The position numbers were made by a program, and so were the translations under genes. Below are positions 6,132 through 52,640 of a stretch of 64,000 nt of DNA, in pieces. Numbering within the stretch: the stretch's first letter is position 1; each line of letters begins with the position of its first letter. Under the pieces are notes generated by a model. The model was not told the origin of the DNA and ran no database searches. It saw only the letters and a list, made by a program, of their open reading frames with translations. Origin of the DNA: Polyangium spumosum (lineage in GTDB: Bacteria > Myxococcota_A > Polyangia > Polyangiales > Polyangiaceae); contig NZ_WJIE01000009.1 of assembly GCF_009649845.1 (NCBI RefSeq), forward strand, positions 96,685 to 160,684, in the 5' to 3' direction.

Positions 6132-6159
6132 CGCGTGTTGTCCCCTCCGCCTCCGCGCC

Positions 6160-17288: not shown

Positions 17289-17295
17289 CGGGCCG

Positions 17296-21000: not shown

Positions 21001-22112
21001 TCGCCGAGCCCGTGCTCGCCGCGATGGAGAGCCCCGAGGTCGCGGGCGACGGCGCCGGGGATCCAAACGTCGCGCTTTGGCAGAACGTCGCCTGGCCGCT
21101 CAAGGACCACGAGAACAAGAAGGCGGGCAACGGGGTCTCGAACCTCGAGACCTTCATGCTCTCGGACCTCCCGCTCATCACGGGGAAGAACTGCATCGCC
21201 GAGCTCGACAAACGCGCGAACGTCGACGGCTCGGGCGGGTTCTTCGCGGGCAAACAGAAGTACATCGTCGAGGAGCTACGCGAGCGCTGCCGCGCCCTCG
21301 CCGGCGACGAGATGCGTGATCGGTACGCCGCGCTCCGCCGCACCTTCAACCGCGAGCTCTCGGGCAAGTTCCCCTTCGTCAAGATCGAGCCTGGCATCCG
21401 CGTCGAGGACGCGCGGCCCGAGGTCGTCCGCCGCTTCCTCCAGGACGCCGGCGATTTCCGCGCCGATTTTGGCTACGTCCTCGGCAAGGAGACGAAGGCC
21501 TCGGCGGGCGAGGTCGGCCGCTTCCTCGACAAGATCGAGGCCGTCCGCGCCTTCATGATGCCCATGTGGGCGCAGGTCGAGTCGGCCGAGGACGGCATCT
21601 ACGACGTCAAGGTCGAGTTCCGCGTCAACCCCGGCCTCGAGGTCGGCGGCAACCGCATCGCCGAGTGGGCCATGCGGCTCGCGGACGAGCGCCTCTTCCG
21701 TGACGGCCCCAAGGTCGAGGCGAGCTGGCGCGTGAACGATCCGGTCCGCGTCGATCTGCGCTGGGCGAAGTCGAGCCTCGACGTGCCTCTGTCGACGCAG
21801 GGCCCGAACGTCTTCGTGAACGACAGGACCGTCACCTTCGAGGAGCGCGGCCCCTGGGCGCTGCTCCGCATGATCGCGTTCCACCAGACCTCCGCGCGGG
21901 ACGCGTCGCAGAAGTCCGAGGGCGGCTCGCACGTGCTCGGCTTCGTCATCCAGTCCTCGCCGGATCCCACGGGTGGCTTCATCGAGCGCGTCGGGACCGA
22001 GGCCAACACCGTACGTGTCTTCATCCGCATCGGGATCACCGGCGTCGAGAAGGACCGGTTCCTCCGCTACCCCGAGTTCCCCGCGGTCGCCCCGACCCTC
22101 TACGAGAGATAA
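18045..22112 (+). CDS. tssM: type VI secretion membrane protein TssM (IcmF family)
   Basis: 1355 aa. N-terminal TM helices. Walker A motif (LGEPSSGKTTLL). IcmF-like length. 4-nt overlap with tssL. Confidence 0.9.
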   Translation: MTVGLLLKILAGLAALAVVGVGVYALVLAQKKKAQKAAELARREGKPDAVAEIRASVGKAKAALVKKVPDKAAREEMPRFLVLGEPSSGKTTLLGGSGLSVGLHEGGDPAPGDRSAVHLWMLGKALLVDVAGGLLFGEGGTAAPDGPYRALLHELKRLYPDRPVDGILLTVPCNEVMPQARSTPAERKRKATVLRAAIALAQQTLGMNVPVYVVVTQTDRLSGFRSLGTEVTQNGKDDILGWSSPHPPFTEGSDDWASEAIGSVRDALLRYQARRFAGAPVVRSPDDFFLFPSEIESLGDGLRTYVDPVFLEGAGQETLTLRGIYFTGLADPPAGPLPLPAPGASPAALAPPAKPAAAAAPPGKVLFTKDLFEHKVFAERNLGKPAAAALRRRQRVNLGLQLVAGCLAGMFLAALWIDASRLERRTTAVMPFLRDVQSSVLSAKSEAPGTETSFEAKKLRAKALIEKLETIEESGRLRSPLNPASWWSRLDGRVDSAFVIALEQVLVDTFRAGLDEEANHLLRPLPPQAPPDTFFPLSVEKSQEYILLETWLRELGAFEAHVARHDALLGELPKDATPDARMQGVADLSDYLLGYKTSPTIAVEYYRNALARGARRQPFDLAPRRDPAREKAQALFKGLQDRVLEAYSDAVVRADVEQLVQSLKDLETKGAEYTAQDLWTLRDAIARVEAHLGAPTLAWVSSESLPPNEGIAGLLKAVKTSRLLGPDVEAALRGGVDARLLDLKTYVASAGAPLSGPILERKGGVLLMRLSPFILGLKAPIDALRQQTFMTAEEEQTLTAELDRARVDWDAEVLKEASRLPKDYETFLQGKLLTTIDPRVRNTISDLTVRQVKASTLGAVARAARPATPLPGNSNRQFETVRADAANLGQAMAPIREMIGAFVRLRMDDARDRLRELLRGQGSEVLGRGAEVLRAENLYGLKKGGFTWWDGRSTPAFEAFSVPDAGRLSEYAAAQRTRAATLHKELAEPVLAAMESPEVAGDGAGDPNVALWQNVAWPLKDHENKKAGNGVSNLETFMLSDLPLITGKNCIAELDKRANVDGSGGFFAGKQKYIVEELRERCRALAGDEMRDRYAALRRTFNRELSGKFPFVKIEPGIRVEDARPEVVRRFLQDAGDFRADFGYVLGKETKASAGEVGRFLDKIEAVRAFMMPMWAQVESAEDGIYDVKVEFRVNPGLEVGGNRIAEWAMRLADERLFRDGPKVEASWRVNDPVRVDLRWAKSSLDVPLSTQGPNVFVNDRTVTFEERGPWALLRMIAFHQTSARDASQKSEGGSHVLGFVIQSSPDPTGGFIERVGTEANTVRVFIRIGITGVEKDRFLRYPEFPAVAPTLYER

Positions 22113-22117
22113 CCGCG

Positions 22118-23197
22118 ATGTCGTCGACGAACGCCCTGCACATCGATCTGGAGACGTTGCTCCAGCCCATCTCCGAGGAGGCGCCGTGTGGCGCGTCTCT
22201 CCGGTACGAAGGCACGTACGACCGGGTCCGCGAGGCGCGCCGCGAGGACGATCCGTCGCTGCCCATGGGCGACTGGGAGACCAAGCTCAAGGTCGCCGAC
22301 TTCGCGCTCGTGGACAAACTTTGCCAGGAGGCGCTGCGCAAGAAATCGAAGGACCTCCAGATCGCGGCGTGGCTCGTGGAGGCTTGGCTGCGGCGCTATC
22401 GCGTGAAGGGCCTCGGCCAGGGTTTGTCGCTCGTCGCCGCGCTCTGCGAGCGGTACTGGGACGGCCTCTTCCCCGCGCTCGGCGACGACGAGGACGCCTC
22501 CGCGCGCGCGGCGCTTTACGAGTGGATGGACGACGTCCTCTCCGATCGCCTGCGCCAGACGCCGTTCGCGGACGGGGACGCGTCGTTCTCGCTGCTCGAT
22601 TGGGAGCTCGGCGCGAAGGCCGGGCCTGTGGACGGGGAGGGGGAGGCGGCGCGGCCGACGCGGGAGTCGCTGCTCGCCAAGATCTCGCTCGGCGGCGCGC
22701 GCTTCACGGACGTCGCGCTCGACGCGGGCACGGCGATCATCGCGGCCGAGGCGGCCGAGGCGGCGATCGCCGCGCAGATCCCGCGCCCGCCCACGCTGCG
22801 CCGCGTGCGTGAGGTCCTCGCGCAGATCGAGATGCTCGCGCGGGACGCGGCGCGTATCAACGGCGAGAGCGCTCCCTCCGCGGCGAGCGCGCCCGGGGAG
22901 AGCCCGCCGCTGCTCGGATCGGCCGCGGCGGCGGCGGCGGCGTTCACGGCCTCGGGCGGCGCGGGGGCGTCGGGCTCCTTCGCCATCTCGAGCCGCGCCG
23001 ACGCGTATTACCGCCTCGCCGAGGCGGCCGAGTACCTCATGCGGACCGAGCCGCACAGCCCCGTCCCGTACCTGGTCAAACGTGCGGTGCAGTGGGGCAA
23101 CATGTCGCTCGCGCAGCTCCTCTACGAGTTCGTCGGAAACCCTGATGATCTCGTGGCGATACAGCGCTTGCTCGGGATGCGCGGGAGGGAGGAATAA
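22118..23197 (+). CDS. tssA: type VI secretion protein TssA (ImpA N-terminal domain)
   Basis: ImpA_N-like N-terminus (LLQPISEEAPCGASLRYEGTYDRVREARRED). Confidence 0.85.
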   Translation: MSSTNALHIDLETLLQPISEEAPCGASLRYEGTYDRVREARREDDPSLPMGDWETKLKVADFALVDKLCQEALRKKSKDLQIAAWLVEAWLRRYRVKGLGQGLSLVAALCERYWDGLFPALGDDEDASARAALYEWMDDVLSDRLRQTPFADGDASFSLLDWELGAKAGPVDGEGEAARPTRESLLAKISLGGARFTDVALDAGTAIIAAEAAEAAIAAQIPRPPTLRRVREVLAQIEMLARDAARINGESAPSAASAPGESPPLLGSAAAAAAAFTASGGAGASGSFAISSRADAYYRLAEAAEYLMRTEPHSPVPYLVKRAVQWGNMSLAQLLYEFVGNPDDLVAIQRLLGMRGREE

Positions 23198-23358
23198 CGG
23201 GGGATCCGCGAGCGCGCCCCTACGAGGGTGTTGTGTTTTCGAGCCCGAGCACGGTAAGAAGGAAAATGCGCCAGAAGTAGACCCCGTGCGCGGGCGGTGT
23301 TTCGGGAAGTTCGCAAAGCCGCGGCTGCCGCCGCGAGAGCCGAGGAAGGGAGCCATCG

Positions 23359-23862
23359 ATGGCAGAGAGCAAGCAGCACTGGCTGGACCGGAACCGTCCG
23401 CCGCGTGTGCAGATCACGTATGACGTCGAGACGGGCAACGCAATCGAGAAGAAAGAGATCCCGTTCGTCGTCGGCGTGCTGAGCGATCTGGGGCAGAACC
23501 CGGCGAATCCGCTGCCCAAGCTGAAGGATCGCAAGTTCGTCGAGGTCGACCGCGACAATTTCAACGACGTCCTGGCCTCCACGAAGCCGGAGATCACGGT
23601 GAAGGTCGACGACGTGATCAAGGGGACGGGCAAGATCGCGATTCCCCTGACGTTCACGCACATGGACGATTTCCGGCCCGAGCGCCTCGTCGAGCGGATC
23701 CCGGAGCTCCGCAAGCTGCTCCGCGCGCGCGAGCGCCTGAACGACCTCCTCGCCAAGCTCGAAGGCAACGACGAGCTCTCGGCGGCGCTGCGTGAGGTCA
23801 TGGAGAGCACCGAGGCTCTCGAGAAGATCAAGGCGGAAGTTTCGAAGGACGACCAGAGCTGA
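23359..23862 (+). CDS. tssB: type VI secretion sheath small subunit TssB (VipA)
   Basis: 167 aa; PPRVQITYDVETGNAIEKKEIPFVVGVLSDL matches the TssB consensus. Confidence 0.9.
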   Translation: MAESKQHWLDRNRPPRVQITYDVETGNAIEKKEIPFVVGVLSDLGQNPANPLPKLKDRKFVEVDRDNFNDVLASTKPEITVKVDDVIKGTGKIAIPLTFTHMDDFRPERLVERIPELRKLLRARERLNDLLAKLEGNDELSAALREVMESTEALEKIKAEVSKDDQS

Positions 23863-23883
23863 GTCCGCGCGGAGGATACGAAC

Positions 23884-25386
23884 ATGCCGGAGACGAGCAG
23901 CGCGAAACAACACATCGACACGAGCGCGGATGGCGCGGCGATCATCGATCAGATCCTCGCCGAGGGCGCGATGGTCCGGGGGGACAACCCCGCCCAGAAG
24001 CAACACGCCCGCGACATCGTCGGGGAGTTCTGCCAGCAGATCCTCGATGAGCGGGATCCTGCGGACAAGCAGCGGGCCATCGACCTCGGCGCGGTCGCGG
24101 CCATTCAGGATCGCATCAACGAGATCGACGAGATCATCGGCAAGCAGCTCGACGTGATCCTGCACGCGGCCGAGTTCCAGTCGCTCGAGGCGCGCTGGCG
24201 GGGGCTGCACTACCTCGTCATGAACACGGAGACGAGCACGCGGCTCAAGATTCGCGTGATGAACGTCCGCAAGGACGAGCTCCGCAAGGATTTCGAGTCG
24301 GCGCCCGACTTCGATCGCAGCGCGCTCTTCAAGAAGGTCTACGAGGAGGAGTACGGCACCTTCGGCGGCGCGCCGTATGGCCTGCTCCTCGGCGACTACG
24401 AGTTCGACGGATCGAGCCCGGACGTCGGCCTCTTGACCGAGCTTTCGAAGGTCGCGGCGGCGGCGCACGCGCCCTTCATCTCGGCGGCGAGCCCGTTCCT
24501 CTTCGACATGGAGAACTTCGGGCAGATCGGCGTGCCCGGCGATCTCGCCAAGCTCTTCGAGAGCACGCAGCTCATCAAGTGGCGCGAGTTCCGCGAGAGC
24601 GAGGACAGCCGTTACGTCGGCCTCGTGCTCCCGCATGTGCTCATGCGCCTCCCGTACGGCCCGAAGGGCGTGCCCGTGGACGGCTTCATGTACGAGGAGA
24701 ACGTCGGCGCCGAGGACAAGAACTTCCTCTGGGGCAACGCGGCGTACGCGCTCGGCCAGCGGATCACGAACGCGTTCGCGCATTATGGCTGGTGCGCGGC
24801 GATCCGCGGCGTCGAGGGCGGCGGCCTCGTCGAGAACCTCCCGGTGCACGTCTTCAAGACGAGCGACGGCGACCTCGCGGTGAAGACGCCGACCGAGGTG
24901 GCGATCACCGATCGCCGCGAGAACGAGCTCTCCGAGCTCGGGTTCATCGGGCTCTGCTATCGCAAGAACAGCGGCCAGGCTGCGTTCTTCGGCGGCGCGA
25001 CCGCGAACAAGCCCAAGGTGTACAACCTGCCCTCGGCGACGGCGAACGCGCGTCTGTCGGCGCAGCTCCCGTACATCATGGCGACGAGCCGGTTCGCCCA
25101 TTACATCAAGGTCATGATGCGCGACAAGATCGGCAGCTTCATGACCAAGGACAACGTGTCGTCGTACCTCAACAACTGGATCGCGGACTACGTGCTCCTC
25201 AACGACGACGCGGGTCAGGACACGAAGGCGCGGCTGCCTCTTCGTGAGGCGCGGATCGACGTCACCGACGTTCCGGGCAAGCCGGGCGCGTACCGCGCCG
25301 TGGTCTTCCTGAAGCCGCACTTCCAGCTCAACGAGCTCACGGTCTCGATGCGCCTCGTGGCGGATCTTCCGCCTCCTGCAGCGTGA
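23884..25386 (+). CDS. tssC: type VI secretion sheath large subunit TssC (VipB)
   Basis: 500 aa; conserved TssC stretches (FQSLEARWRGLHYLV, GAPYGLLLGDYEFD, LPHVLMRLPYG). Confidence 0.95.
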   Translation: MPETSSAKQHIDTSADGAAIIDQILAEGAMVRGDNPAQKQHARDIVGEFCQQILDERDPADKQRAIDLGAVAAIQDRINEIDEIIGKQLDVILHAAEFQSLEARWRGLHYLVMNTETSTRLKIRVMNVRKDELRKDFESAPDFDRSALFKKVYEEEYGTFGGAPYGLLLGDYEFDGSSPDVGLLTELSKVAAAAHAPFISAASPFLFDMENFGQIGVPGDLAKLFESTQLIKWREFRESEDSRYVGLVLPHVLMRLPYGPKGVPVDGFMYEENVGAEDKNFLWGNAAYALGQRITNAFAHYGWCAAIRGVEGGGLVENLPVHVFKTSDGDLAVKTPTEVAITDRRENELSELGFIGLCYRKNSGQAAFFGGATANKPKVYNLPSATANARLSAQLPYIMATSRFAHYIKVMMRDKIGSFMTKDNVSSYLNNWIADYVLLNDDAGQDTKARLPLREARIDVTDVPGKPGAYRAVVFLKPHFQLNELTVSMRLVADLPPPAA

Positions 25387-25492
25387 CGGGCTTCGCAGAT
25401 CGGTGTAGGGTGTAAATCATGGAGATCGCCGTCCCACGCGCGGATACTCGCGCGCGGGCGGCGATCATCGACGGGGACGCGGAGGATTTACG

Positions 25493-25987
25493 ATGGAAAC
25501 CAGCTTTTTGGAGATCGAGGGCGTCAAGGGCGAGAGCACGGCGGCGCAGGGCAAGGACAAGATCGAGGTCATGTCCTTCAGCCACGGCGTGGCGATGCCG
25601 CTGACGAGCGGCGCCTCGGCGAACGCGCGCGCGCACGGCCGCTGCGTGCATCAGGACTTCACGTTCAGCAAGTACCTCGACATCACCTCGCCGACGCTGA
25701 ACCTCAAGTGCAGCGGCGGCGACAACATCAAGAAGGCCGAGCTCACCGTCTTCCAGGCCGACAAGAACGACGGCGACATGGTCCTTTATTACAAGATCAC
25801 GTTCGAGGACGTGATCCTGACGAACATCTCGGTGAGCGGCGGCTCGGGTGGCCGTCCCATCGAGACGGTCACGTTCAACTACCGCAAGATCAAGTGGTCG
25901 TACGCCCAGCAGGGCCAGCCTTCGCCGGCGGGCAAGAAGGGCACGGCCGAGGCGGGCTGGACGCTCGAGGAGAACAAGAAGCTCTAA
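25493..25987 (+). CDS. hcp: Hcp (TssD) tube protein
   Basis: 164 aa; FLEIEGVKGEST...VMSFSHGV pattern typical of Hcp. Confidence 0.9.
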   Translation: METSFLEIEGVKGESTAAQGKDKIEVMSFSHGVAMPLTSGASANARAHGRCVHQDFTFSKYLDITSPTLNLKCSGGDNIKKAELTVFQADKNDGDMVLYYKITFEDVILTNISVSGGSGGRPIETVTFNYRKIKWSYAQQGQPSPAGKKGTAEAGWTLEENKKL

Positions 25988-26023
25988 CCCGAGGACGTAT
26001 TCTCGTCCCAGGGGAGCGACAGA

Positions 26024-26500
26024 ATGGCGAAGGCGTGGGGATCCACGAGCGCGGGCAGGGTTCCCCTGTTCGATCGGCTGATCGACGAGAACCCTGCTCA
26101 AAAACAGGAAGTGGTCCCCTATTGCACCCTCGACCGAGACGGGCTGCGCGCCTCCGTGGCCCGCGAGCTCGGTCGAATCCTCGGCACCCGCAGCCCCATC
26201 TCCGGCGACGAGGCCCTCTCCCGACCGCGCACGACCATCGATTACGGGTTGCCCGACCTCGAGCTCGGCGGCCGTGCGCTCGTGCCGGAGGAGCTGCGCC
26301 GCCTCGTGCGCCTCGTGCAGAAGACGATCGAGGCGTACGAGCCGAGGCTCCAGAACGTACGCGTGGAGATCAAGCGACGCGAGGACGCGCCGCCGCACGC
26401 GCGGCTCGTCGTCGCGCTCACGGCGACGCTCGTCACGGACGAGGTGCGTGAGCCCCTCTCGTTCGAGGCGCCGCTCGAAGCGAGCTCGGGGGCCGCATGA
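26024..26500 (+). CDS. tssE: type VI secretion baseplate protein TssE (gp25-like)
   Basis: 158 aa; gp25/GPW-like pattern (LFDRLIDENP...TIDYGLPDL). 4-nt overlap with tssF. Confidence 0.85.
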   Translation: MAKAWGSTSAGRVPLFDRLIDENPAQKQEVVPYCTLDRDGLRASVARELGRILGTRSPISGDEALSRPRTTIDYGLPDLELGGRALVPEELRRLVRLVQKTIEAYEPRLQNVRVEIKRREDAPPHARLVVALTATLVTDEVREPLSFEAPLEASSGAA

Positions 26501-28305
26501 GCCGGGGTGATCCCGATCGGGAGATGCTCGAGCTCTACGCGCGCGAGCTCGTGTATCTGCGCGAGCGCGGCGCCGAGTTCGCCAAGGACTATCCGAAGAT
26601 CGCGGCGCGCCTCGGCACGTCGAGCCAGGCCTCGGCCGATCCACACGTCGAGCGCCTCGTCGAGGCCTTCGCGTTCCTCTCGGCGCGCCTCACGCGCGAC
26701 ATGGAGGCCGAGCTGCCGATTTACACGACGTCGCTGCTCGGCGTCCTCTATCCGCAGCTCGTTTGCCCCGTCCCTGCGATGGCGATCGCCGCCTTCGAGG
26801 TCGACCCGAAGGAGCAGAAGCTCGGCTCCGGCTACACGGTCGACAAGCACACGCCGCTCTTCGCGGCCTCGCAGAGCGGGCCCGTTTGTCATTTTCGCAC
26901 CGCGTATCCGGTCACGCTCTGGCCGATCGAGATCACGCACGCGGGCATGGTCCCGCCCGAGAACCTCGACCTGCCCGGCTGGCTCGTCGCGAACGCCGCG
27001 GCCGTGCTCGAGATCGAGCTCTCGACCGGCGGGGTCCCGCTCGACAAACTCGGCATGCGCTCGCTGCGCTTCCACGTCGCGGGCGGGGGCATGGGCGCGG
27101 CGCGGCTCTACGACCTCGTCGCCGCGCACGCCGTCGGCGTCCTCGTGGTCGGGGACAACCCTTCGCAGGACTGGGCCCACGGCAAGATCCGCCCCGTCGG
27201 CTTCGAGGCGAGCGAGGACGTCCTGCCGTATCCGCCCCACGCGCACCGCGGCCATCGCCTCGTGCAGGAGTATTTCGCGTTCCCGGAGAAGTTTCATTTC
27301 TTCGACATCGAGCTCCCGAAGCTCCCGCCCCGGAAGAACGCGAAGATCCTCGTCCTCTTCGACCAGAAGCCGCCGGCCGGCGCCGCGGTCCGCAAGACGA
27401 CGCTCTCGCTCGGCTGCACCCCGATCATCAACCTCTTCCCGCGCAGCGCCGAGCCCATCCGCGTCGATCACACCCGGCCCGAGTATCGCCTCGTCGCCGA
27501 CGCGCGCCGCGAGCGGACCACCGAGGTCCACTCGATCACGCGTGTGGCCGCCACCGCGCCCGGCGAGCCCAAGCAGATCGATTACGCGTCCTTTTTCTCC
27601 TTCGTGCACCACCAGAAGGGCGAGCGGCCGCGCGCCTTCTGGCACGCGCGCCGTGTCGCCACGGGCCGCAAGGACCTGCCGGGCACCGACCTCTGGCTCA
27701 CCTTCGTCGACACCGACTTCAAGCTCGCGCGTCCGCCCTCGGAGACCGTCTACGCGGGCGTCCTCTGCACGAACCGCGACCTCGCGAACGAGATCGCCAA
27801 GGACACCCAGCTCTCCCCCGAGCGCCCCATCCCGGCCCGGAAAATCGTTTGTCTCACGAAACCGACGCCCCAGCGCGCGGCGCCCATGGGCGGCGAGGCC
27901 CTCTGGCGGCTCGTCTCGAACCTCTCGCAGAACCACCTCTCGATCACCGACGGCAAGGCCGGCGTCTCCGCGCTCCGCGAGATCCTGCGCGCGTACGTCT
28001 TCGGCGATTCGCCCGACGCCGAGCGCCAGATCGACGCGCTTCTCGACATCTCGAGCCGCGTCGTCACGCGCCGCCTCGGCAGCGACGCGTGGCGCGGCTA
28101 CTGTCGTGGCCTCGAGATCACGCTCACGCTCGCGGACGAGCAGTTCGCCGGATCGAGCCCGGTCCTTTTGGCCTCGGTGCTGAGCCGCTTCTTCGCCTTG
28201 CAGGCGCACATCAATGCGTTCACCGAGCTCGTCCTGAAGCGCGCCTCGCGCGCGGAGGTCTGGAAGCGATGGCCGCCCACGGCTGGCGAAAGAGCCCTTC
28301 TGTAG
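26497..28305 (+). CDS. tssF: type VI secretion baseplate protein TssF
   Basis: 602 aa; N-terminus LELYARELVYLRERGAEFAKDYPKIAARLG is the TssF signature. Confidence 0.9.
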   Translation: MSRGDPDREMLELYARELVYLRERGAEFAKDYPKIAARLGTSSQASADPHVERLVEAFAFLSARLTRDMEAELPIYTTSLLGVLYPQLVCPVPAMAIAAFEVDPKEQKLGSGYTVDKHTPLFAASQSGPVCHFRTAYPVTLWPIEITHAGMVPPENLDLPGWLVANAAAVLEIELSTGGVPLDKLGMRSLRFHVAGGGMGAARLYDLVAAHAVGVLVVGDNPSQDWAHGKIRPVGFEASEDVLPYPPHAHRGHRLVQEYFAFPEKFHFFDIELPKLPPRKNAKILVLFDQKPPAGAAVRKTTLSLGCTPIINLFPRSAEPIRVDHTRPEYRLVADARRERTTEVHSITRVAATAPGEPKQIDYASFFSFVHHQKGERPRAFWHARRVATGRKDLPGTDLWLTFVDTDFKLARPPSETVYAGVLCTNRDLANEIAKDTQLSPERPIPARKIVCLTKPTPQRAAPMGGEALWRLVSNLSQNHLSITDGKAGVSALREILRAYVFGDSPDAERQIDALLDISSRVVTRRLGSDAWRGYCRGLEITLTLADEQFAGSSPVLLASVLSRFFALQAHINAFTELVLKRASRAEVWKRWPPTAGERALL

Positions 28306-29324
28306 AGGCCTGGCTCTTCGACGAGGGGCACGCCTTCGATTTTTATCAGGCCGTCTCCCTCCTCGAGCGCTGGCGCGAGGGCGACGCCGTCCCCGTCGGC
28401 GAGGGCTCCGATCCTTCACGCGAGGCCGTGCGGTTCTCGTCGAGCATCGCGCTCTCCTTCCCCGAGACCGACGTCGCGAAGATTCGCCCGCCGCACCGCG
28501 AGGGCCAGCCGGCGAAGATGCTCGTCAACTTCCTCGGCCTCGGCGGCGCCCTCGGCCCTCTGCCGCCGCCCATCGTCGAGTCGATCTTCATGCGCGCCGT
28601 CCGCGGCGACACCGCGGCGCGTGATTTCCTCGACATCTTCAATCACCGCCTCGTCTCCTTCGCTTATCGGATCCGCAAGGGCCACCGCGTCGGCCTCGGC
28701 GCCTCCTCGCCCGAGAAAGACGCCGCGGCGCGGCACCTCTTTTCGCTGCTCGGGCTCGGCTTTCGCGCGCTCGAAGGCCGCCTCGCGGTCCAGGATCGCG
28801 CCCTGCTCGAGCACGCGGCGAACCTCTCGAGCGAGAGGCGCTCGCTCGAGGGCCTCGTGGCCATCCTCCGCCGCCATTTTGGCGTCTCGATCGAGCCCAT
28901 CCCGCTCACCGGGGCGTTTCATCCCATCGAGGACGGTGATCGTACTGCGATCGGCCGCTCCGGCCAGAACCGCGCCCTCGGCCGCGACGCCTGCCTCGGG
29001 GGGCGCTTCTGGGATCAGGAGTCGACCTTCGACCTGCGCATCGGGCCGATGAAGCTCGACGAATTCCTTCGATTCCTCCCGGGCGGCGACGCGCTCGCGC
29101 CGCTCTGCTCCCTCGTGCGGTTTTATGCTGGCGCCCGATTCCACTTCGGCCTCGTCCTCGTGCTCGCCGAGGGCGAGGCGCCGCGGGCGGCGCTTGGTCG
29201 CCCTGGGCGCGCGCTCCTCGGCCAGATCGCGTGGCTCGGCGACGTGGGCAAGGTGGGCAGGAGGGACCGCGAGGTGCGTTTGTCCCGTGCGGCCATTCGG
29301 AAGGGGCTCGGGGAGGCTGGCTGA
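28269..29324 (+). CDS. tssG: type VI secretion baseplate protein TssG
   Basis: ATG at 28269, in frame with the 3' part of tracked ORF 26763..29324 (MAAHGWRKSPSVEAWLFDEGHAFDFYQAVSLLER...). TssG-like; overlaps tssF by 37 nt. The 5' 1.5 kb of that tracked ORF is an off-frame artefact inside tssF. Confidence 0.85.
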   Translation: MAAHGWRKSPSVEAWLFDEGHAFDFYQAVSLLERWREGDAVPVGEGSDPSREAVRFSSSIALSFPETDVAKIRPPHREGQPAKMLVNFLGLGGALGPLPPPIVESIFMRAVRGDTAARDFLDIFNHRLVSFAYRIRKGHRVGLGASSPEKDAAARHLFSLLGLGFRALEGRLAVQDRALLEHAANLSSERRSLEGLVAILRRHFGVSIEPIPLTGAFHPIEDGDRTAIGRSGQNRALGRDACLGGRFWDQESTFDLRIGPMKLDEFLRFLPGGDALAPLCSLVRFYAGARFHFGLVLVLAEGEAPRAALGRPGRALLGQIAWLGDVGKVGRRDREVRLSRAAIRKGLGEAG

Positions 29325-29377
29325 GGCTTGTCAACCGAGCGTGTGCCGGGATATCGTTCGACTGAGGCTTTTTTCGC

Positions 29378-32300
29378 ATGACGACCGAAGACCAGAGCCA
29401 GGGCGCCACGGAGAGCATTCCGAGCAAGCTCGGGAAGTTCGCGCAGGAGCAGATCGACAAGGCCGAGGTCACGGTCACGAAGGGCGTCTCCACCGTCCGC
29501 GACTCCACGAACGGGATCATCGGCAAGGCCGAAGAGCAGATCCTCAAGCTCAACAAGGCCCTCTACGAGACCAAAAACGGCATCTCCTCCGGCATCGACA
29601 CGGCGATCAAGGAGACCGAAGGGCAGCTCAAGGGCATCACGCCCGAGCTCAAGAAGATGGGCGAGGACGCCATCGCGTCCGCGAAGTCGAAGCTCGACGG
29701 GCTCGTCGGCGAGGTCGAGGGCAAACTCGAATCGCAGAAGGACTCGCTCGTCACGACGGCGAAGGATCAGATCCAGAGCGCGGCCGACGCGGCGAAGGGC
29801 AAGATCGACGAGATCGGAGAGCTCGGCGAGGAGCAGGCGACGAAGGTCCTCGACGCGGTGAAGGCGCAGGCCGACACGGTCGAGCAGAAGCTCGGGGACA
29901 TCGCGGGCGAGATCGACGGCAAGATCGAGGCGATCGGCGACGACGTCCGGAGCAAGTTCGAGGCGGCGATCGCGAAGGTTCCCGATCACGACGGCGCCAA
30001 GGCCGAGATGTCGGCGAACATCGACGCCGTCGTGGGCGAGCTACGCGAGGCCACGAAGGGCTCGATCGATCAGGCGCGCGAGACGCTGAAGAGCCTCGTC
30101 CAGCAGACCGACGACACGATCAAGCAGACGATCGGCGACGTGCGGCGCGCGATCGGCGAGGTCCCGACCCGCATCAACCAGTGCGCGCAGGACATCCTCG
30201 CGAAGGTCGACGACGCCATCCAGAAGACGATCGACGAGATCGCGAACCTCGCGCGTGGTCTCGTCGCGCGCACGGCGGAGCTGCTCAACGAGGCGCTGCT
30301 CACGATCACGAGCACGATCGACAAACTGCTCGCCGACGGCTTCGCGCTCGTGCGGGGGATCAAGGCCGACCTCGATCGGCTGCTCGACCAACTGCTCGAG
30401 CAGATCCGCGACCTGACGCTCGGCACGCTCGAGGACGTGCGCAAGGCGGCGAACGAGCTTCTCGGCACGTTCGAGGCCGAATGCAAGAAGATCCTCCAGA
30501 CGATGGAGGACTCGGTCATCGTCTCGGTCGAGGAGCTCGGCGGCAAGATGAACGCCTCGATCAAGGCGCTCCAGGCCGACTTGAACCTCGAGGCGGACAA
30601 GATCGTCCGGGACCTCGTGGCGGAGGGCGCGAAGGGGCACGACGACGCGCTCGCGGACTTCATCAGCGCCGGTTATGAAGAGGACACCTCGGTCATCCCC
30701 AAGATCCGGGCCAAGGGCGAGGCTGCGATCAAGCAGATCGAGGCCAAGACCAAGGCGCAAGGGGAGAAGCTGATCAAGGACTTCGAGCTGCAAGCGACGC
30801 TCTTGAAGCCGAAGATCCAGGCGCAGGGCATCAAGGTCATCGCGCAGATCGCCGCGCTCGGACCGAAGCTCGCGATGCAGGCCATGCAGATCGCGACGAG
30901 CATCGCGTCGTCGATCAAGGACAAGGGCGAGGCGGTCAAGAAGACGTTCGAGGAGCTGCAATCGACGCTCGTCGACGCGATCACGAAGAAGATCCCCGAT
31001 TACCTCGAGAGCTGCAAGAAGCAGATCAAGGCCGCGGCGGACGCGCTCGTCGAGGCGGGCAAGACGTTCTACGAGAAGACGCTCGCCGACATCATGGGGG
31101 CGATCAAGGCGGCGGAGCAGCGGTTCAAGCAGCTCGCCTCCGAGATGAAGGACCTCATCGAGACGCAGGTGCTCGAGCTCGTGGCCTCCATTCGCCGGAC
31201 GGTGGAGACCTCGATCCAGCGCTTCAAGGACCTCGGCGCGGCGTTCGAGGACAAGACGAACGCGCTCGTGAACGACATCCCGGCGCGGATCCTCAAGCTG
31301 GAGCAGGTCGCGCGGACGGCGGTCGAGAGTCAGATCGCGCTCGCGCAGGGGCTCGCGAATGCGACGAAGGAGGACATCCTCCTCAAGGCGCGGACGGCGC
31401 TCGCGGAGATCAAGAAGGCGGCGTACGGGGTCACGGCGGGCATTTCGGGTGATCTGGGCGCATTGAAGGGGACGCTCGCCGCGATCGTGCCGGCGGGCGG
31501 GGGGCTCGACGCGGCGGGGGCGATCAACCTCGTGGTCTCGGGCGGGCTCGAGCAGATGGTCACGTCGGCGGCGAACGCGGCGTCCGCGGCGGTGACGGCG
31601 GGCGTGAACGCGGCCGAGGCCGTGAACAACGCGGCGGAGCAGGCGGCGGCCGCGATGGGGGCGGCGGGGTTCGAGGGCGCCTCGAAGGCATTGACGGACG
31701 TGCTGAACCAGCAAATGGGGGAGGTGCGGACGGAGGGCGAGAAGGCGAAAAACGTCATCGCCGCGGCGAAGGAGAAGACGATGGCGGTCGCCAAGGAGGC
31801 GAACGACGCGTGCTCCGAGGCGGCGGCGGCGGCGCAGGCCGAGGCGGCGAAGGTCGTGGAGGCCGCGCAATCGACGGGCGACGCGATCAAGGCCTCGGCG
31901 GACAACCTGACGAAGAGCCTCGAGAAGGCGAAGGAGATCGTCAAGGACGCCGGCAAGACCGCGATGCAATCGATGAAGGAGGCCCAGGACGCGCGCAAGG
32001 GCGGCGACGGCGCGCAGGCCGGCGCGGGGGCACAAGCCGGGGCGGCGGCAGGCGCGGACGCGGGTGGGGCGGACGCGGCGGCGGACGCGGGTGGCGCGGA
32101 GGCGGCGGCGGACGCGGGCGGGGCGGAGGCGGCGGCGGATGCGGGTGGCGCGGAAGCTCCGGCGGCGGAGGCGGCGGCTCCCGAGGCAGCGGCTCCCGAG
32201 GCCAAGGCAGAGGTTCCGGGCGCCAAGGCAGAGGTTCCGGGCGCCAAGGCAGAGGTTCCGGGCGCCTCGAAACCGGAAGCGGGCGCCGATGTAGCGGCGC

Positions 32301-33091
32301 CGGCCGTCCCGAAGGCGCCTCCGGGCGCCAAGGTGCCGGAAGCGGCCGCCAAGGTACCGGAAGCGGGCGCCAAGGTACCGGAAGCGGGCGCCAAGGTACC
32401 GGAAGCGGGCGCCGGTGTAGCGGCGCCGGCCGTCCCGAAGGCGCCTCCGGCCGCCAAGGTACCGGAAGCGGCTGCCAAGGTACCGGAAGCGGGCGCCAAG
32501 GTACCGGAAGCGGGCGCCGGTGTAGCGGCGCCGGCCGTCCCGAAGGCGCCTCCGGCTGCCAAGGTACCGGAAGCGGCCGCCAAGGTACCGGAAGCGGCTG
32601 CCAAGGTACCGGAAGCGGCTGCCAAGGTACCGGAAGCGGGCGCCAAGGTACCGGAAGCGGCTGCCAAGGTACCGGAAGCGGGCGCCGATGTAGCGGCGCC
32701 GGCCGTCCCGAAGGCGCCTCCGGCCGCCAAGGTACCGGAAGCGGGCGCCAAGGTACCGGAAGCAGCCGCCCCTGCGGCGGCGCCGGCCGTCCCGAAGGCG
32801 CCTCCGGCCGCCAAGGTGCCGGAAGCGGCCGCCAAGGCAGCGGTCCCGGGCGCCCCGGCGGCCGCCCCGAAGGCCCCCGAACCCCCGGCCGCGCCGGCCG
32901 ACGCCGCGCTCTTCGCCCCGAAGGCCGCGCCCGCGGCGCCCAAACCCCCGGCCGCGCCCGCGCCGCCCGCCGCTCCTTCCATGCCCGGCGCCGCGAAACC
33001 TCCCGCCGCGCCCGCCGCGCCCGCCGCCCCCAAGCCCGTCCTCCCCGGCGGCGGCAAATGGCCCGGCCCCGGCGGCAAGCCCGGCCCCTGA
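29378..33091 (+). CDS. large (1237 aa) Lys/Glu/Ala/Ile-rich all-helical protein of unknown function with C-terminal AKVPEA(A/G) tandem repeats and a Pro/Ala-rich tail; T6SS-operon-associated
   Basis: Starts 54 nt after the tssG stop on the same strand. About 900 aa of amphipathic-helix/coiled-coil-like sequence. Then about 25 perfect 8-aa repeats. Composition is atypical for this genome (high Lys/Ile). Confidence 0.75.
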   Translation: MTTEDQSQGATESIPSKLGKFAQEQIDKAEVTVTKGVSTVRDSTNGIIGKAEEQILKLNKALYETKNGISSGIDTAIKETEGQLKGITPELKKMGEDAIASAKSKLDGLVGEVEGKLESQKDSLVTTAKDQIQSAADAAKGKIDEIGELGEEQATKVLDAVKAQADTVEQKLGDIAGEIDGKIEAIGDDVRSKFEAAIAKVPDHDGAKAEMSANIDAVVGELREATKGSIDQARETLKSLVQQTDDTIKQTIGDVRRAIGEVPTRINQCAQDILAKVDDAIQKTIDEIANLARGLVARTAELLNEALLTITSTIDKLLADGFALVRGIKADLDRLLDQLLEQIRDLTLGTLEDVRKAANELLGTFEAECKKILQTMEDSVIVSVEELGGKMNASIKALQADLNLEADKIVRDLVAEGAKGHDDALADFISAGYEEDTSVIPKIRAKGEAAIKQIEAKTKAQGEKLIKDFELQATLLKPKIQAQGIKVIAQIAALGPKLAMQAMQIATSIASSIKDKGEAVKKTFEELQSTLVDAITKKIPDYLESCKKQIKAAADALVEAGKTFYEKTLADIMGAIKAAEQRFKQLASEMKDLIETQVLELVASIRRTVETSIQRFKDLGAAFEDKTNALVNDIPARILKLEQVARTAVESQIALAQGLANATKEDILLKARTALAEIKKAAYGVTAGISGDLGALKGTLAAIVPAGGGLDAAGAINLVVSGGLEQMVTSAANAASAAVTAGVNAAEAVNNAAEQAAAAMGAAGFEGASKALTDVLNQQMGEVRTEGEKAKNVIAAAKEKTMAVAKEANDACSEAAAAAQAEAAKVVEAAQSTGDAIKASADNLTKSLEKAKEIVKDAGKTAMQSMKEAQDARKGGDGAQAGAGAQAGAAAGADAGGADAAADAGGAEAAADAGGAEAAADAGGAEAPAAEAAAPEAAAPEAKAEVPGAKAEVPGAKAEVPGASKPEAGADVAAPAVPKAPPGAKVPEAAAKVPEAGAKVPEAGAKVPEAGAGVAAPAVPKAPPAAKVPEAAAKVPEAGAKVPEAGAGVAAPAVPKAPPAAKVPEAAAKVPEAAAKVPEAAAKVPEAGAKVPEAAAKVPEAGADVAAPAVPKAPPAAKVPEAGAKVPEAAAPAAAPAVPKAPPAAKVPEAAAKAAVPGAPAAAPKAPEPPAAPADAALFAPKAAPAAPKPPAAPAPPAAPSMPGAAKPPAAPAAPAAPKPVLPGGGKWPGPGGKPGP
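32200..32840 (+). repeat. intragenic perfect 24-bp tandem repeats (GCCAAGGTACCGGAAGCGGGCGCC...; about 25 copies, encoding AKVPEAGA/AKVPEAAA)
   Basis: Visible directly in the DNA; interspersed GVAAPAVPKAPPAAKVPEA variants. Likely copy-number variable. Confidence 0.85.
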
Positions 33092-33174
33092 CGCGACGAG
33101 CGCGAGGGCACGACTTCCACGTTTCTCGAAGAAGCCCCTTGCGGACTTAGTTCGAGGATGTTAGAAGTAGGCCC

Positions 33175-33501
33175 GTGACCTCGAAGCTGGATCGTCACGC
33201 GCAGCAGCTCAGCGCGCTTGGCCATCCCGTTCGCCTTCAGATCCTGCGCTTCGTCGTGCAGGGGGGCGAAGGGGGGACGTCGGCGGGCGAGATCCAGGCG
33301 CATGTCGATCTGCCGGCGTCGACCTTGAGCCATCACCTGAAGCGGCTCGTCGAGGCGGGCCTGTTCACGACCCGCCTCGAAGGCACATTTCACTACTACG
33401 CCGCCGATTACGCGGCGCTCCTGGCCCTCACGGGTTACCTCTGGGAAGACTGCTGCAATCGTGGCAAAGGCGGCAAAGTCGTGAAGAGCGGCTGCTGCTG
33501 A
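33175..33501 (+). CDS. ArsR/SmtB-family metalloregulatory transcriptional repressor
   Basis: HTH region (LSALGHPVRLQILRFV...ASTLSHHLKRLVEAGL). Cys-rich C-terminus (CCNRG...SGCC), consistent with metal sensing. Confidence 0.85.
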   Translation: MTSKLDRHAQQLSALGHPVRLQILRFVVQGGEGGTSAGEIQAHVDLPASTLSHHLKRLVEAGLFTTRLEGTFHYYAADYAALLALTGYLWEDCCNRGKGGKVVKSGCC

Positions 33502-33566
33502 ACGGCCGCTTTTTTTGGGCCCCAAGGTTCGAGTTTTTTGGAAGCAAGAAGAAAAGGAGACTCCCC

Positions 33567-38992: not shown

Positions 38993-41900
38993 TCACTTGC
39001 ACTTGTCCACGAGTTCCTTGCACGGATCGATGTAGCTGGCCGACATGATCTTATCGAGCTCCTTGTTCACGAAGCTCAGGAAGGTCTTGTCGTCGATCCA
39101 GTCGCGCGCCCAGTCGCGCGTGCCGATGATGTCGAGCCGCTGCCGGATGTCGTGCGCGAGCCCCTCGATCGAGCTCGAGTCGCGGAAGATGTCCTTGCGG
39201 GCGTCGATCTTCGCCGCGAGCGTCTGCGCGATCTTCTCGGTGGACCATTGCGTGTCCGGTGTCCACGCGCTCCCGGACTCCGTGAACACCCGGATGTTCA
39301 GCCCGTCGGTGAGTTTGTCCTCGAGGATCTCCTCGATCTGGCTCCGCGTGATGAAGGGGGCCGTGTAGGGCTCGTCCGGCCATTCGAAGTCCCCGAGGTC
39401 CTCGGCTTCGATGAACGTCTGCTGCGAGACGTGGTTGCCCAGCCAGCCGCCCGGGCCCACCGACGCCTTGATCTTCCCCGCGAGCCCCGTCCAGCTCATG
39501 GAGCTCTTCATCGAGAAGCCTTCCCGGCTGTGGATCTGGAGCTTCCCCTGGAATTCGAACCCGCTCTCCAGCGTGGCCTCGAATTCGACGCAGCTCCCTG
39601 CCTGGACACGCGCCCCCACGGCGCCCGCGATGCTCAAGGTGAACGGGATCGCGACGGTGGCGTCCACGCCCGGGCTGACGCGCTCGATCTCGTAGTTGAT
39701 GGAGACGCCCCCCTCGATCTTCGCGAAGAGCTGCGCCTTGAAGCTGCAGCTCGCGATCCCGACGCCGATCTCGGCGGAGGCCGAGAACAGGTTGAACTGG
39801 AAGATCAGCTTCGCCCCGGCGTACGCCCGTTCGTCCTTGTATTCCTTCTGCTGCCATTCGAGGTTGAAGACGCCCTGGAGGACCTGGAACTCCCACTGGG
39901 CATACCAGCCGATCTTGGGGACCGCGTCCTGGATGCCCTTCATGATCTTGAGCGCGTGCTGCACGAGCCCCACGATGCCCAGGATCGGCTGGATGACGTC
40001 GGCCGCGTTGACGAGCGACTTGCCATCCATCGTGATGGTGACGCCCTCCCCGAAGGGTTTTTTCTCCGCCCCCTTCTTGGGTTTTTCCCAGCCGGCTGGC
40101 TCCTCGAGCGACTCTCCTGCGTCGACCCACGCGAGGCCCTTGCTGCCGTCGGAGAGCGTGACCTCGTCGAGCTTCTCCCCGAGCTTCGAGCCCATCTTGG
40201 CGCTGCGCACCTTGGGCATTTTGATCGCGAGCGCGAGCTTGTTCGGCGCGTAGACCGCGATGGTGAGGGGCTTTTCGAATCCCTCGACCTTGTACTCCGT
40301 CGCCGCGGTGAAGGCCTTCCAGAACGTGGCGCCGAGGATGTTGTGGCCCAGGGTGCCCTTGAACGCGACCTTGACGTCGTATTGCGTGTAGCCCTCGCCC
40401 GCGGCCTTCCCCTGCACCGTGACCTTCTCGCCCCCGCGCGACACCGTGATCGCGCTCGGCGAAGGCTTCGCGCCGCCCCGGTAGAGGAGCGTCACCACGT
40501 CCTCGAGCGTCTGCGCGTCGGGGACCACCTCGAAGCGGGCCACGTTTTTCACGCGGCTCTTTCGGCTCGCGAGCTCGTGCGCGCAAAAAACGACGAGCTC
40601 GCTCTCCCCCGCGCCCGTCGTCGCCCCGCCCGACGTCGAGCCGGCCGTCTCGCCCTCCTCGGACGTCTCCTCCGTCGCCTCGTTCTCCGCCGGCGGCGCC
40701 TGCAAAAGCGAGAGCGTGCGCCAGTGCTCGATGAGGCCGATCGGGTGCAGGTGCCAGACCTTGTCCTTCGAGGGCAAACCCGCGCTCGATGCGTCTCCCC
40801 AGAAGCCGAGCTTCTTGATGTACTCACGCGTCGTCGCGAGCGACGCGTCGTCGAGGTTCCACGGCGGCCCCTTCAATCGATCGAGCCCCGGCACCTCGCC
40901 GGCCCACTCCGTCGGATGCAGGCACGCGATCCGCCGCAGCTTCTCGGCGATCGCGGGGTCCTTCAAGGCCGCCTTGATCTCCGCCGCCGAGACCTTCCCG
41001 TCCTTGTTCTCGTCGACGAGCCCGAGCAGGCTCGGCGCGTCGCAGAGCCCATCCTGGCTGAATTTGCCGGGCTCCTCGATCCGCTGCCAGCGCGGCCAGT
41101 CGTACGCGAAGAGGACCTTCGTATCCTTGTCGACTTCGATCCAGCCCTTCCCCCCGCCGAAATCCACCTCTTGCCAGACCTTGCCCTCCTTGTCCTTGAA
41201 GACCCGCGCGTCCGAGGCGGGCAAGATCTCGGTGAAGATCTCCGCCGCGTTCGAGCCCGCCCCGTCCTCGAACACGACCGCGCCGTCGGGTTTTTCCTTG
41301 GAAAGGACGGGCAACGCGCTCTTCAGCGTGTAGCGCGACGTCTTGCCGTCCCAGTCCCCGAGCAGCTCGCGCTTCGTCCAGCCCGTGCGTTTCTCCTGCT
41401 CCGCTTTCGGGAGCACATACCGCACCTGGCGGTCGCTCTCGCCCTTCTGCGCGACCCAGTACACCTTCGCGCCCTTCGGCGCGTTGATTTCAATCGTCGC
41501 GCCCCCGCCGGGCTCGGTCGTGAGCGTCGCGAGTGGCGCCGCCAGCGTATACGCCGCGCTCCCCTGGTCATACGCCCCGAGCAGCTCGCGCTTCGTCCAT
41601 CCCACGGCCTCGCTGCAAGCGACCTTGCGCAGATCGCCGGGCGGCTGCTCCACGAGGCTGAGGCGTGCGCCGGCGGGCCAGTCGACCTTCACCTCGGGCG
41701 GCGTGACGTTCTTGCGTGTCTTGAACTTCGTGCCCGCCGCGATCTGCAAGAGCCCCGGGCCGCCCTTGTCGCCCTTGGGGTTCTTCATGAACTCGACGTC
41801 GCCCGTCAGCACCTCGAAATGGGTCGTCGCCGGCCGCGTGAAGAACACGCCCGGATACCCGAGAATGGCGCCCGCCGTGACCGGGATCTTGCACGCGACC

Positions 41901-44017: not shown

Positions 44018-44058
44018 GATGCCACCGGACGTGGGATGATACACGTCGGCGCGGCGGA

Positions 44059-45603
44059 TCACTCCATCAAAAGACCCATCCGCGCGAAGCGCAGGAGCTT
44101 CTGCTCGGTGATCTCGGCGAAGACGTCGGCCGACACGCAAGGCGCGCCGTTCATCTCCACCGACACCTCGCCGCGCCGCGCCTCCTCGAGCGCGGCCTCC
44201 GTGAGCGCCGCGGCGTCACGTGTCCCGTCCATCCGCGCGAGGATCACCCGATCGAAGCTGTCGACCTGCACGCCCTCGTGCAGGAGCGTCGTGCAAAACG
44301 GGCTGCCCACGCTCGCCTGGTAACGCGCGAACGAAAAGGCCCGCGGGCGCTCGCTCACCCCACGCGCGACGGGCTTCGGCGAGGCCCAGAGCCGGAGCGC
44401 GTTTTTCGTGTACAACCCGAGCAGGTTCCGCGCGAGCCGCGCCCGCGCCTCCCCCTCGAACGCGGCGAGCCCGAGCCTCTCGCCCGCCTCCCAGGCGAGC
44501 GCGTCGAACGGCAAGCCCCCCGGCGCGCGCGCCGCGAGCGCGACGAGCGCGGCCTTGAGCGTCGCCTGATCCGTGGAGATCGTGCCGCCCGGCCCGAGGA
44601 ACGTCTCCTCGACGCCCTCGCCGAGGTTCGGGCTCGTCGCGCCCGGCGTGAGCGGCGAGGCGACGACGAGCGGAAAGAGGCGATCGACCGAGACACGGCG
44701 CGAGATCGCCACGTCGTCGCGGCAGAGGACGGCGCGGCGAAAGCAGCGGAGCTCGAGCAGGTCGAGGGATTGCTGCATGGCCACGACGTCCCCGCCCGAC
44801 CGCGCGCGTACGGCCTCCGCGGCGGCGGGGCCGAGGCGCTCGGGGAGGACGAGCGGGACGTGCGCGTCGGTGACGAAGGCGAGCCCGGCGTCCTGCATGT
44901 CGCGGGCGAAGTCGGAGAAATACTCGGCGCGGTTGTACGCGACGAGGTGCTCGCCGAGCAGGTAATCGTCCGCGAGCTGGCCGAGGGTCTGGAGCTCGCT
45001 CGCGAGCCAGGCGCGCGCCGGATCGGCGGCGAGGGTCTCGGCGGCGCCGAGGAACTGCAAAAAAGCGCGCGCCTTCACGACGCGCTCGGCGGCCGATCCT
45101 TCCGCGCCGACCTCGCGGCGGAGCATGTCGCGCAAGGCGCCGCGCAGGTGCCAGCCGGGGAGGGTATTGAAGCTGATGTAGGCGAGCCCGTGGGGCGCGA
45201 GGTGCCTGCGGACGAGGCGTCGCAGGGCCGCGCGCGCGTCGTCGGGGATCCACGAGTACACGCCGTGACAGACGATGTAATCGAAGGAGGCGGGCTCGTC
45301 CTCGAATTCGCGGACGTCGGCGAGGTGGAGGGCGAGGTTCTGGAGCCGCGCGCCCTCGGCGTGCTTGCGGGCGACGGCGAGCGAGTCTTCGGCGCGGTCG
45401 AGGGCGACGAAGCGGCTCTCGGGGAAGGCGGCGGCCATGGGCAGGACGTTGCCGCCGGTGGCGCAGCCGATCTCGAGGAGGCGGCAGCGAGCGGGCGGAG
45501 CGGGCCGGAGGCCGAAGAGGGCGCCGACCGCGCCGAGGTGGTCGGGGTGTGTCTCGGCGAAGGGCAGGGCCTCGTAGAAATAGTCCTCGTTCGGGGGGGC
45601 CAA
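44059..45603 (-). CDS. class I SAM-dependent methyltransferase with C-terminal methyltransferase-regulatory-like domain (start uncertain, possibly TTG at 45603)
   Basis: C-terminal 510 aa of tracked ORF 44059..46536. SAM-binding motif region (RLLEIGCATGGNVLPMAAAFPESRFVALD...FDYIVCHGVYSWIP). The 5' part of the tracked ORF is an off-frame read through a repeat region. Confidence 0.7.
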   Translation of the reverse strand: MAPPNEDYFYEALPFAETHPDHLGAVGALFGLRPAPPARCRLLEIGCATGGNVLPMAAAFPESRFVALDRAEDSLAVARKHAEGARLQNLALHLADVREFEDEPASFDYIVCHGVYSWIPDDARAALRRLVRRHLAPHGLAYISFNTLPGWHLRGALRDMLRREVGAEGSAAERVVKARAFLQFLGAAETLAADPARAWLASELQTLGQLADDYLLGEHLVAYNRAEYFSDFARDMQDAGLAFVTDAHVPLVLPERLGPAAAEAVRARSGGDVVAMQQSLDLLELRCFRRAVLCRDDVAISRRVSVDRLFPLVVASPLTPGATSPNLGEGVEETFLGPGGTISTDQATLKAALVALAARAPGGLPFDALAWEAGERLGLAAFEGEARARLARNLLGLYTKNALRLWASPKPVARGVSERPRAFSFARYQASVGSPFCTTLLHEGVQVDSFDRVILARMDGTRDAAALTEAALEEARRGEVSVEMNGAPCVSADVFAEITEQKLLRFARMGLLME

Positions 45604-45709
45604 GCGTTTTCTCCGGGAGGGCGGGCACCTTGGCGAGATCGGGGTGCGGGCGCAAGTGTTTGCCTTCCCGGGCCAGCCTGCCCCATGCTGCTCGCCCGTC
45701 GGTCTGCGT

Positions 45710-46697: not shown

Positions 46698-52640
<5,943 letters not shown>

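Follow-up and report, generated by a model that had tools for sequence, protein, structure and literature searches.

An in-frame 21-bp coding minisatellite in the predicted disordered tail of a long helical protein from Polyangium spumosum

Disordered linkers of the Ala/Pro-rich and PEVK types include the PEVK segment of titin, the inter-domain linkers of 2-oxo-acid dehydrogenase E2 and the Pro-rich spacer of TonB. At the DNA level, near-identical tandem repeats gain and lose copies through replication slippage or unequal recombination. In-frame repeat size variation is known in bacterial surface proteins such as alpha C/Rib of group B streptococci, which have signals for export and face host immunity, and simple-sequence contingency loci are known from Haemophilus and Neisseria, where the classical units shift the reading frame or sit in promoters. 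Here we describe a coding tandem array at positions 32201–32851 of a 64,000-nucleotide stretch of Polyangium spumosum (contig NZ_WJIE01000009.1; hereafter the window), within an open reading frame (ORF) of 1237 amino acids (aa) that directly follows the core genes of a type VI secretion system (T6SS). With a probability of roughly 0.6, judged from sequence and structure prediction, we read the array as an in-frame coding minisatellite that builds a disordered Pro/Ala-rich tail, is remade by slippage or recombination, and would serve a spacer-like role. The ORF and the parts of its tail are as follows, with repeats assigned by codon-level parsing and Tandem Repeats Finder (TRF).

29378–33091, plus strand: 1237-aa ORF bearing the array, ATG to TGA (ORF list and translation).
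29378–31996, plus strand: N-terminal helical domain, aa 1–873 (AlphaFold2 prediction, 21-sequence alignment).
31997–33088, plus strand: C-terminal tail, aa 874–1237 (~364 residues), predicted disordered (AlphaFold2, composition).
32039–32165, plus strand: 27-bp repeat at the start of the tail, 4.7 copies of GGAEAAADA-type Gly/Ala/Asp/Glu units (TRF, 86% matches).
32201–32284, plus strand: three identical 21-bp AKAEVPG units and one degenerate ASKPEAG (TRF at 100% for 32201–32266; codon parse).
32285–32830, plus strand: core array of 16 21-bp AKVPEA[A/G] units among five 42-bp units (codon parse, mismatch counts, TRF).
Starts at 32285, 32411, 32516, 32684 and 32768, plus strand: the 42-bp units, A[D/G/P]xAAPAVPKAPP[A/G] (codon parse).
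32831–32851, plus strand: terminal degenerate heptad AKAAVPG (codon parse).
32852–33055, plus strand: Pro/Ala-rich segment with weak repeats (TRF, weak 9/18/27-bp periodicity only).
33056–33088, plus strand: conserved C-terminal end KWPGPGGKPGP, KWPGSGNKP in P. jinanense (tail alignment).

The array runs in frame throughout, with a period of 21 bp (seven codons). The unit GCCAAGGTACCGGAAGCGGSC is matched 16 times at no more than two mismatches, all within 32327–32830, against 0.00 expected from 100 shuffles, and the core of the 42-bp unit five times against 0 expected. An earlier note, made from the sequence alone, had placed here (32200–32840) a perfect 24-bp array of about 25 copies interspersed with a longer variant. 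Both the coding array and the interspersed variant, namely the five 42-bp units among the 21-bp ones, are indeed present, but several details needed correction. The 24-mer was too long because the first codon of the next unit had been included. Nor is the array perfect: eight of the 16 AKVPEA[A/G] units are identical (mean pairwise identity 93.8%), the five 42-bp units agree to 93%, and 100% identity is confined to the three AKAEVPG units at 32201–32263. The copy number holds only if every token is counted (three AKAEVPG, one ASKPEAG, 16 AKVPEA[A/G], one AKAAVPG and five double-length, 26 in all and equal to 31 heptads), whereas AKVPEA[A/G] units number only 16. TRF itself reports the 21-bp period in two segments, 3.1 copies at 100% (32201–32266) and 21.4 copies at 76% (32322–32770).

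That the ORF is a real gene is indicated by its G+C content at third codon positions (GC3) of 0.90, like that of the real genes of the window (~70% G+C). An overlapping minus-strand ORF (31330–33525) failed the coding filter, based on GC3 and second-position G+C, that the plus-strand ORF passed, and was set aside; we attribute its long open frame to the high G+C content.

Codon usage supports a recent expansion of the array, as the earlier note had proposed from the likeness of the units. GTA makes up 2.2% of valine codons in 18 neighbouring genes and none of the 52 in the protein's own N-terminal domain, against 18 of 29 in the array; GAA, at 8.6% of glutamate codons in the neighbouring genes, accounts for 17 of 20. 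Fixed in the units, these rare codons show recent descent of the copies from one founder. Larger blocks are repeated as well: an exact internal repeat, at 83 bp the longest, starts at 32369 and recurs at an offset of 105 bp, which indicates that multi-unit blocks were duplicated. Higher-order periods of 63, 84, 105 and 126 bp were found in the array by TRF, the 105-bp period extending over 32343–32618 with 96% matches.

Orthologs carry the argument beyond a single genome. A TssG query over one genome per species recovered seven Polyangium loci, and in six of them (L001–L005 and L007) an ortholog stands directly after tssG; these come from Polyangium sp. 6x1, P. fumosum DSM 14668, Polyangium sp. 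15x6, Polyangium sp. y55x31, one metagenome-assembled genome (MAG) and P. jinanense SDU13. Their N-terminal domains align without gaps to that of the window at 86–89% identity, a level of conservation similar to that of TssG. Exact-sequence look-ups with the 1237-aa protein, the ArsR-type regulator encoded downstream and TssC returned no identical or sister-strain record. Among the six, only the P. jinanense gene is complete (1225 aa).

Comparison with this complete ortholog separates the two halves of the protein. The N-terminal domains are 88.9% identical with 0 gaps, while the tails are 51% identical with 50 gap columns. The P. jinanense units open with an identical GCC-AAG-GTA and then diverge into AKVEAPA, AKVEIPA or AKVDIPA; just three of its 11 AKV units are identical, and GTA again is absent from the N-terminal domain (0 of 56 valine codons) and frequent in the tail (11 of 34). 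Units that are common in their start and different in their continuation indicate an ancestral array homogenised separately in each lineage. The locus illustrates concerted evolution cleanly: rare codons are frozen in its units, and the unit differs from lineage to lineage. This differently homogenised ortholog adds to the case for recent expansion. Counted from the last conserved motif, the tails are 370 (window) and 358 aa (P. jinanense) long, and both retain the KWPGxGxKP end; the segment between array and end also has a recognisable counterpart (PADAALFAPK in the window, PADVAPFAP in P. jinanense). The near-equal lengths point to a length constraint on the tail rather than to free tuning.

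The remaining orthologs bear on whether the array has been assembled correctly. Five of the six Polyangium ortholog contigs, from short-read assemblies, end inside the Gly/Ala/Asp-rich start of the tail, which corresponds to the 27-bp repeat of the window (32039–32165). A further relative from a metagenome (L012, N-terminal domain 71% identical), in which the gene does not adjoin tssF/tssG, lies on a contig that ends in a tail with a third type of repeat, GEEKKAGEDKQAAA. Since six of the seven other contigs with the gene (L001–L005 and L012) end within its repetitive tail, the tail evidently defeats short-read assembly. The main practical effect of the array is that this gene is broken when related genomes are assembled from short reads. 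The gene is probably truncated or missing in the annotations of these six assemblies. A region so hard to assemble could have been collapsed or expanded in the window too, leaving the copy number or order of units wrong. We regard this as highly improbable: the ORF stays in frame through the array, the unit variants follow an ordered higher-order pattern rather than a collapsed consensus, and the independently assembled P. jinanense gene has the same C-terminal motif and a near-equal tail length.

Turning to the protein, AlphaFold2 predicts long helices at aa 14–200, 204–431, 439–644, 712–762 and 765–871, with a predicted local distance difference test score (pLDDT) of ~70; a turn conserved across the family, GY-ED-SVIP-IR-KGE, lies at aa 432–448. 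The tail is of a different character. Residues 875–1200 are predicted at a pLDDT of 26–35 (about 28) and contain no DSSP elements; the composition is 39% Ala, 19% Pro, 11% Gly, 9% Lys, 8% Val and 8% Glu, with a net charge of about -3 and only two aromatics in 370 residues. The array itself, aa 942–1158 (217 residues), lies wholly inside this predicted disordered tail and would measure about 70–80 nm if fully extended. No signal peptide or membrane segment was found in the 1237-aa protein, the maximum 19-residue Kyte–Doolittle mean being 1.47.

In composition, in predicted lack of structure, and in keeping length and composition while the sequence diverges, the tail has the marks of a disordered Pro/Ala-rich linker. 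It resembles the PEVK, E2 and TonB linkers, with no homology claimed, in being dominated by Pro, Ala, Lys, Glu and Val and built of short tandem units, and by analogy with them would be expected to behave as an extended flexible spacer. It differs from them in that its unit is a strict heptad of very high DNA identity, and in that it is C-terminal and followed by a short motif only, rather than lying between two folded domains.

The reading that we prefer brings these observations together. A minisatellite of 21-bp units and 42-bp variants would encode a disordered tail of ~364 residues, rich in Pro, Ala, Lys, Glu and Val, on a soluble protein with very long helices that belongs to an uncharacterised family. 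The common ancestor of the Polyangium orthologs would already have had the array, which replication slippage, unequal recombination between units and multi-unit blocks, or both would since have remade continually; every lineage would have ended with a homogenised unit of its own, but with a tail of similar length and composition. A change in copy number would alter the tail in steps of seven residues. We infer that the tail acts through bulk physical properties rather than a specific fold: it would serve as a tether or spacer, extended and flexible, or else as an entropic bristle, lying between the helical domain and the short conserved motif KWPGxGxKP. As a repeat, the array would then be an ordinary coding minisatellite that makes a disordered Pro/Ala-rich region. 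Several points weigh against this account. The AlphaFold2 model has a predicted template modelling (TM) score of 0.36, a modest overall confidence; the conservation of length rests on two complete close orthologs and four complete distant ones; the supposed C-terminal anchor is a short motif only; and several independent tails are strongly enriched in a hydrophobic-Pro-acidic tripeptide, which could mean motif-specific binding.

This last point leads to a different reading, in which many copies of the tripeptide (VPE in the window) bind a partner with avidity and copy number sets valency, not length. The pattern [IVLM]P[ED] occurs 16 times in the window tail against 0.6 expected from shuffles. 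Enrichment is also seen in tails that evolved independently, namely those of P. jinanense (8 against 0.9), of the distant homolog P0003 (9 against 0.7) and of P0007 and P0013. Counts within one tail, however, are not independent, the units being copies of one another. Moreover, the motif is absent from the tail of P0006 and from the visible part of that of L012, is not significantly enriched in P0001 or P0004, and is missing from the main P. jinanense unit, AKVEAPA. On balance, display of a binding motif seems quite unlikely.

The family as a whole is very small. Searching 1.84 billion representative proteins exhaustively with HMMER gave only 36 hits. Word-indexed homolog searches with the N-terminal domain and with an 8-sequence profile, in which scoring was limited to 8,000 candidates each, found nothing useful; with a 93-column profile of the most conserved stretch, 889 candidates were scored and one 97-aa fragment was found. 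No relatives of the protein were found on viral contigs. Four distant homologs are full length (P0001, P0003, P0004 and P0006; 1119–1167 aa, 22–27% identical) and have the ~860-aa helical domain in common, with the GY-ED-SVIP-IR-KGE turn invariant across the full-length homologs. Each of the four has its own unrelated repetitive charged tail of 259–312 aa, disordered as judged by composition. Across the family the tails measure 259–370 aa and have repeat periods of 7, 7, 32, 24, 12 and 15 residues. The family may be described as three helices of ~200 residues, an invariant turn and a lineage-specific repetitive disordered tail of 260–370 aa. Three bacterial members (P0007, P0009 and P0010) have an OmpA-like insert of the peptidoglycan-binding type after the first ~640–720 residues of the helical region; no obvious signal peptide and no T6SS neighbours were seen for these three.

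These distant tails also bear on the simplest alternative, that the tail is functionless slippage junk tolerated in a GC-rich genome. Poor conservation of the tail sequence and two other 21-bp arrays in the window (14425–14709 and 45817–46235) would fit such neutral low-complexity expansion. Against it, every full-length member, in bacteria and on archaeal-looking contigs alike, keeps a repetitive charged tail of similar length despite its unconserved sequence, which suggests that length or physical character matters, and between species both the reading frame and the KWPG motif are preserved beyond the array. Purely neutral expansion is accordingly judged decidedly unlikely.

Matches of the N-terminal domain to described families were treated with caution. 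PF01442 (Apolipoprotein) scored 58.7 bits, below the Pfam cut-off of 90; ApoLp-III and Baculo_PEP_C likewise matched below threshold, chains of apolipoprotein A-IV in the PDB matched at E = 2e-4, and ZorA tails were among the matches to helical low-complexity proteins. The resemblance to apolipoproteins A1/A4/E and other long amphipathic-helix proteins thus consists of sub-threshold matches and the ~200-residue predicted helices; it is a likeness of composition, and Foldseek searches of the PDB found only generic coiled coils (SMC, MukB) at a TM score of ~0.1. An identity as a tape-measure protein of phages or contractile injection systems was also considered, with PHROG E-values down to 8.8e-14. 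The reversed sequence reaches 5.5e-16 against such families, and because it scores equally well the tape-measure matches were judged compositional and rejected; the sub-threshold Apolipoprotein and ZorA-tail matches were dismissed on the same ground.

The surroundings of the gene in the window are those of a T6SS cluster, with the features upstream of the ORF as follows.

15954–29324, plus strand: T6SS core genes tssK, tssL, tssM, tssA, tssB, tssC, hcp, tssE, tssF and tssG (Pfam/NCBIfam matches above cut-offs).
29328–29357, plus strand: promoter-like TTGTCA-18-TATCGT in the gap between tssG and the ORF (consensus match only; one found, 0.2 expected).

The end of tssG (29324) lies 53 bp upstream of the ORF on the same strand, and a consensus scan of the gap found no terminator-like site between them. 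The earlier description of the gene as T6SS-associated is thus right as to position, the ORF directly following tssB-tssC-hcp-tssE-tssF-tssG. Downstream of the ORF come the ArsR-type regulator and a glyoxalase; products encoded on the minus strand include VgrG, a MORN protein, a PAAR-like protein of family DUF4280 and a protein of 1715 aa that bears a pesticin/lysozyme-like domain. The T6SS genes identified in the window are tssA, B, C, E, F, G, K, L and M, hcp and vgrG; no Clp/AAA+ ATPase family, such as that of ClpV/TssH, was matched by the scanned ORFs of the 64-kilobase window, which included all those of at least 600 aa. The 1715-aa ORF (38993–44140, minus strand) lies downstream of vgrG and a 260-aa ORF. 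Its pesticin/phage-lysozyme-like domain is at the N-terminus (Pfam E = 1.7e-9), and on this sequence evidence the protein is likely a T6SS cargo effector.

Such a setting, commonly tied to antagonism, would fit a contingency locus, which the earlier note had suggested as plausible, tuning the length of a surface-exposed or secreted spacer. Put more fully, a hypermutable copy number would adaptively tune, within populations, the length of a surface-exposed or T6SS-secreted protein. Slippage would be favoured by the high identity of the units and by exact repeats that reach 83 bp, unit type and number do vary between species, and the gene adjoins T6SS, VgrG and effector genes. As in alpha C/Rib proteins and contingency loci, near-identical tandem DNA units lie in a coding region where gain and loss of copies are expected. 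Unlike in classical contingency loci, the units here, all of 21 or 42 bp, keep the frame, so they can change length only and on/off switching of the gene is impossible; a contingency locus in the usual sense is not supported. The protein, unlike alpha C/Rib proteins, has no export signal, its tail is nearly equal in length in the two complete orthologs, and homologs occur in other bacteria and on archaeal-looking contigs away from T6SS genes. The proposed surface-exposed or secreted spacer accordingly finds no support in the sequence, although T6SS-dependent export may still occur. Taken together, adaptive length tuning within populations is unlikely.

A structural role in the T6SS is a separate matter. 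In seven Polyangium-type loci, the window among them, the gene comes after tssG in the same orientation, as one for a T6SS component (TssA–M, Tag) might. Unlike such components, the 1237-aa protein had no T6SS family match in Pfam or NCBIfam, and a more distant Polyangium MAG (L006, TssG 73% identical) has the same T6SS cluster with an amidase-type gene in place of the ORF. Adjacency to T6SS genes is found in the window, L001–L005 and L007 and is lacking in L008–L011, L012 and L013–L015; because the distant members have no T6SS neighbours, the association is one of position and is confined to a single Polyangium clade. The literature searched yielded no T6SS accessory factor resembling this protein, and the words 'coiled-coil', 'disordered' and 'Myxococc' are absent from the text of a 2026 review of such factors. 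Possibly, an undescribed family spread over Myxococcota-like bacteria and archaeal-looking contigs was recruited into the Polyangium T6SS operon as an accessory tether or spacer, the repeats setting its reach, an idea that we consider very unlikely as it stands. If the tail were a T6SS tether, repeat turnover would tune a physical dimension of a T6SS, and the significance of the array would rise if the protein proved to be such an accessory. The gene closes the T6SS core operon in Polyangium, so a role in the machine is testable.

Three of the distant homologs, P0001, P0003 and P0006, lie in archaeal-looking contigs with genes for archaeal flagellin, geranylgeranyl reductase or TFIIS, and no T6SS or contractile-tail genes were found near them. 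In all three contigs a conserved gene precedes the homolog, encoding proteins of 500–570 aa that are 48–58% identical to one another and fall in no Pfam family.

L008 8427–9917, L011 7027–8634 and L015 6215–7930: upstream partner gene, preceding the distant homolog.

Homolog and partner may form a conserved two-gene module. The partner weakly matches the PHROG annotation 'baseplate hub' (E = 1.5e-5 and 5e-3); its identification as a VgrG/gpD-like hub was not upheld, since hhalign against the VgrG of the window gave 0.1% probability and the PDB gave no match, and it is kept as a weak lead only.

Several other repeats occur in the window. At 14425–14709, a 21/43-bp tandem array of ~13 copies (consensus TCCTCCCGCAGGCTGACCTCA, 83–85% matches) precedes the T6SS cluster, flanked by a minus-strand AraC-family regulator (13285–14364) and a plus-strand gene apparently starting near 14790. 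It looks non-coding, with a GC3 of 0.60–0.72 in every frame against ~0.9 in genes, and could represent regulator-binding repeats or a promoter-region repeat locus. The second 21-bp array, at 45817–46235 (~20 copies, 79% matches), is most likely a coding one, codon-position G+C favouring plus-strand AKSGTEP/LAKAREE heptads in an ORF at about 45584–46609; it overlaps an implausibly long N-terminal extension of a minus-strand methyltransferase ORF (44059–46536). Coding repeats of 108, 48 and 57 bp at 7582–7985 encode a Pro/Ala-rich segment in a 1833-aa tetratricopeptide repeat/zinc-ribbon ORF (5719–11220), and repetitive Pro/Ala-rich linkers seem to be common in this genome. Finally, a 2000-aa ORF at 46698–52700 on the minus strand contains 15 MopE-type putative metal-binding motifs and is made up of a 165-bp tandem repeat of 12.9 copies (82% matches) at 48430–50564.

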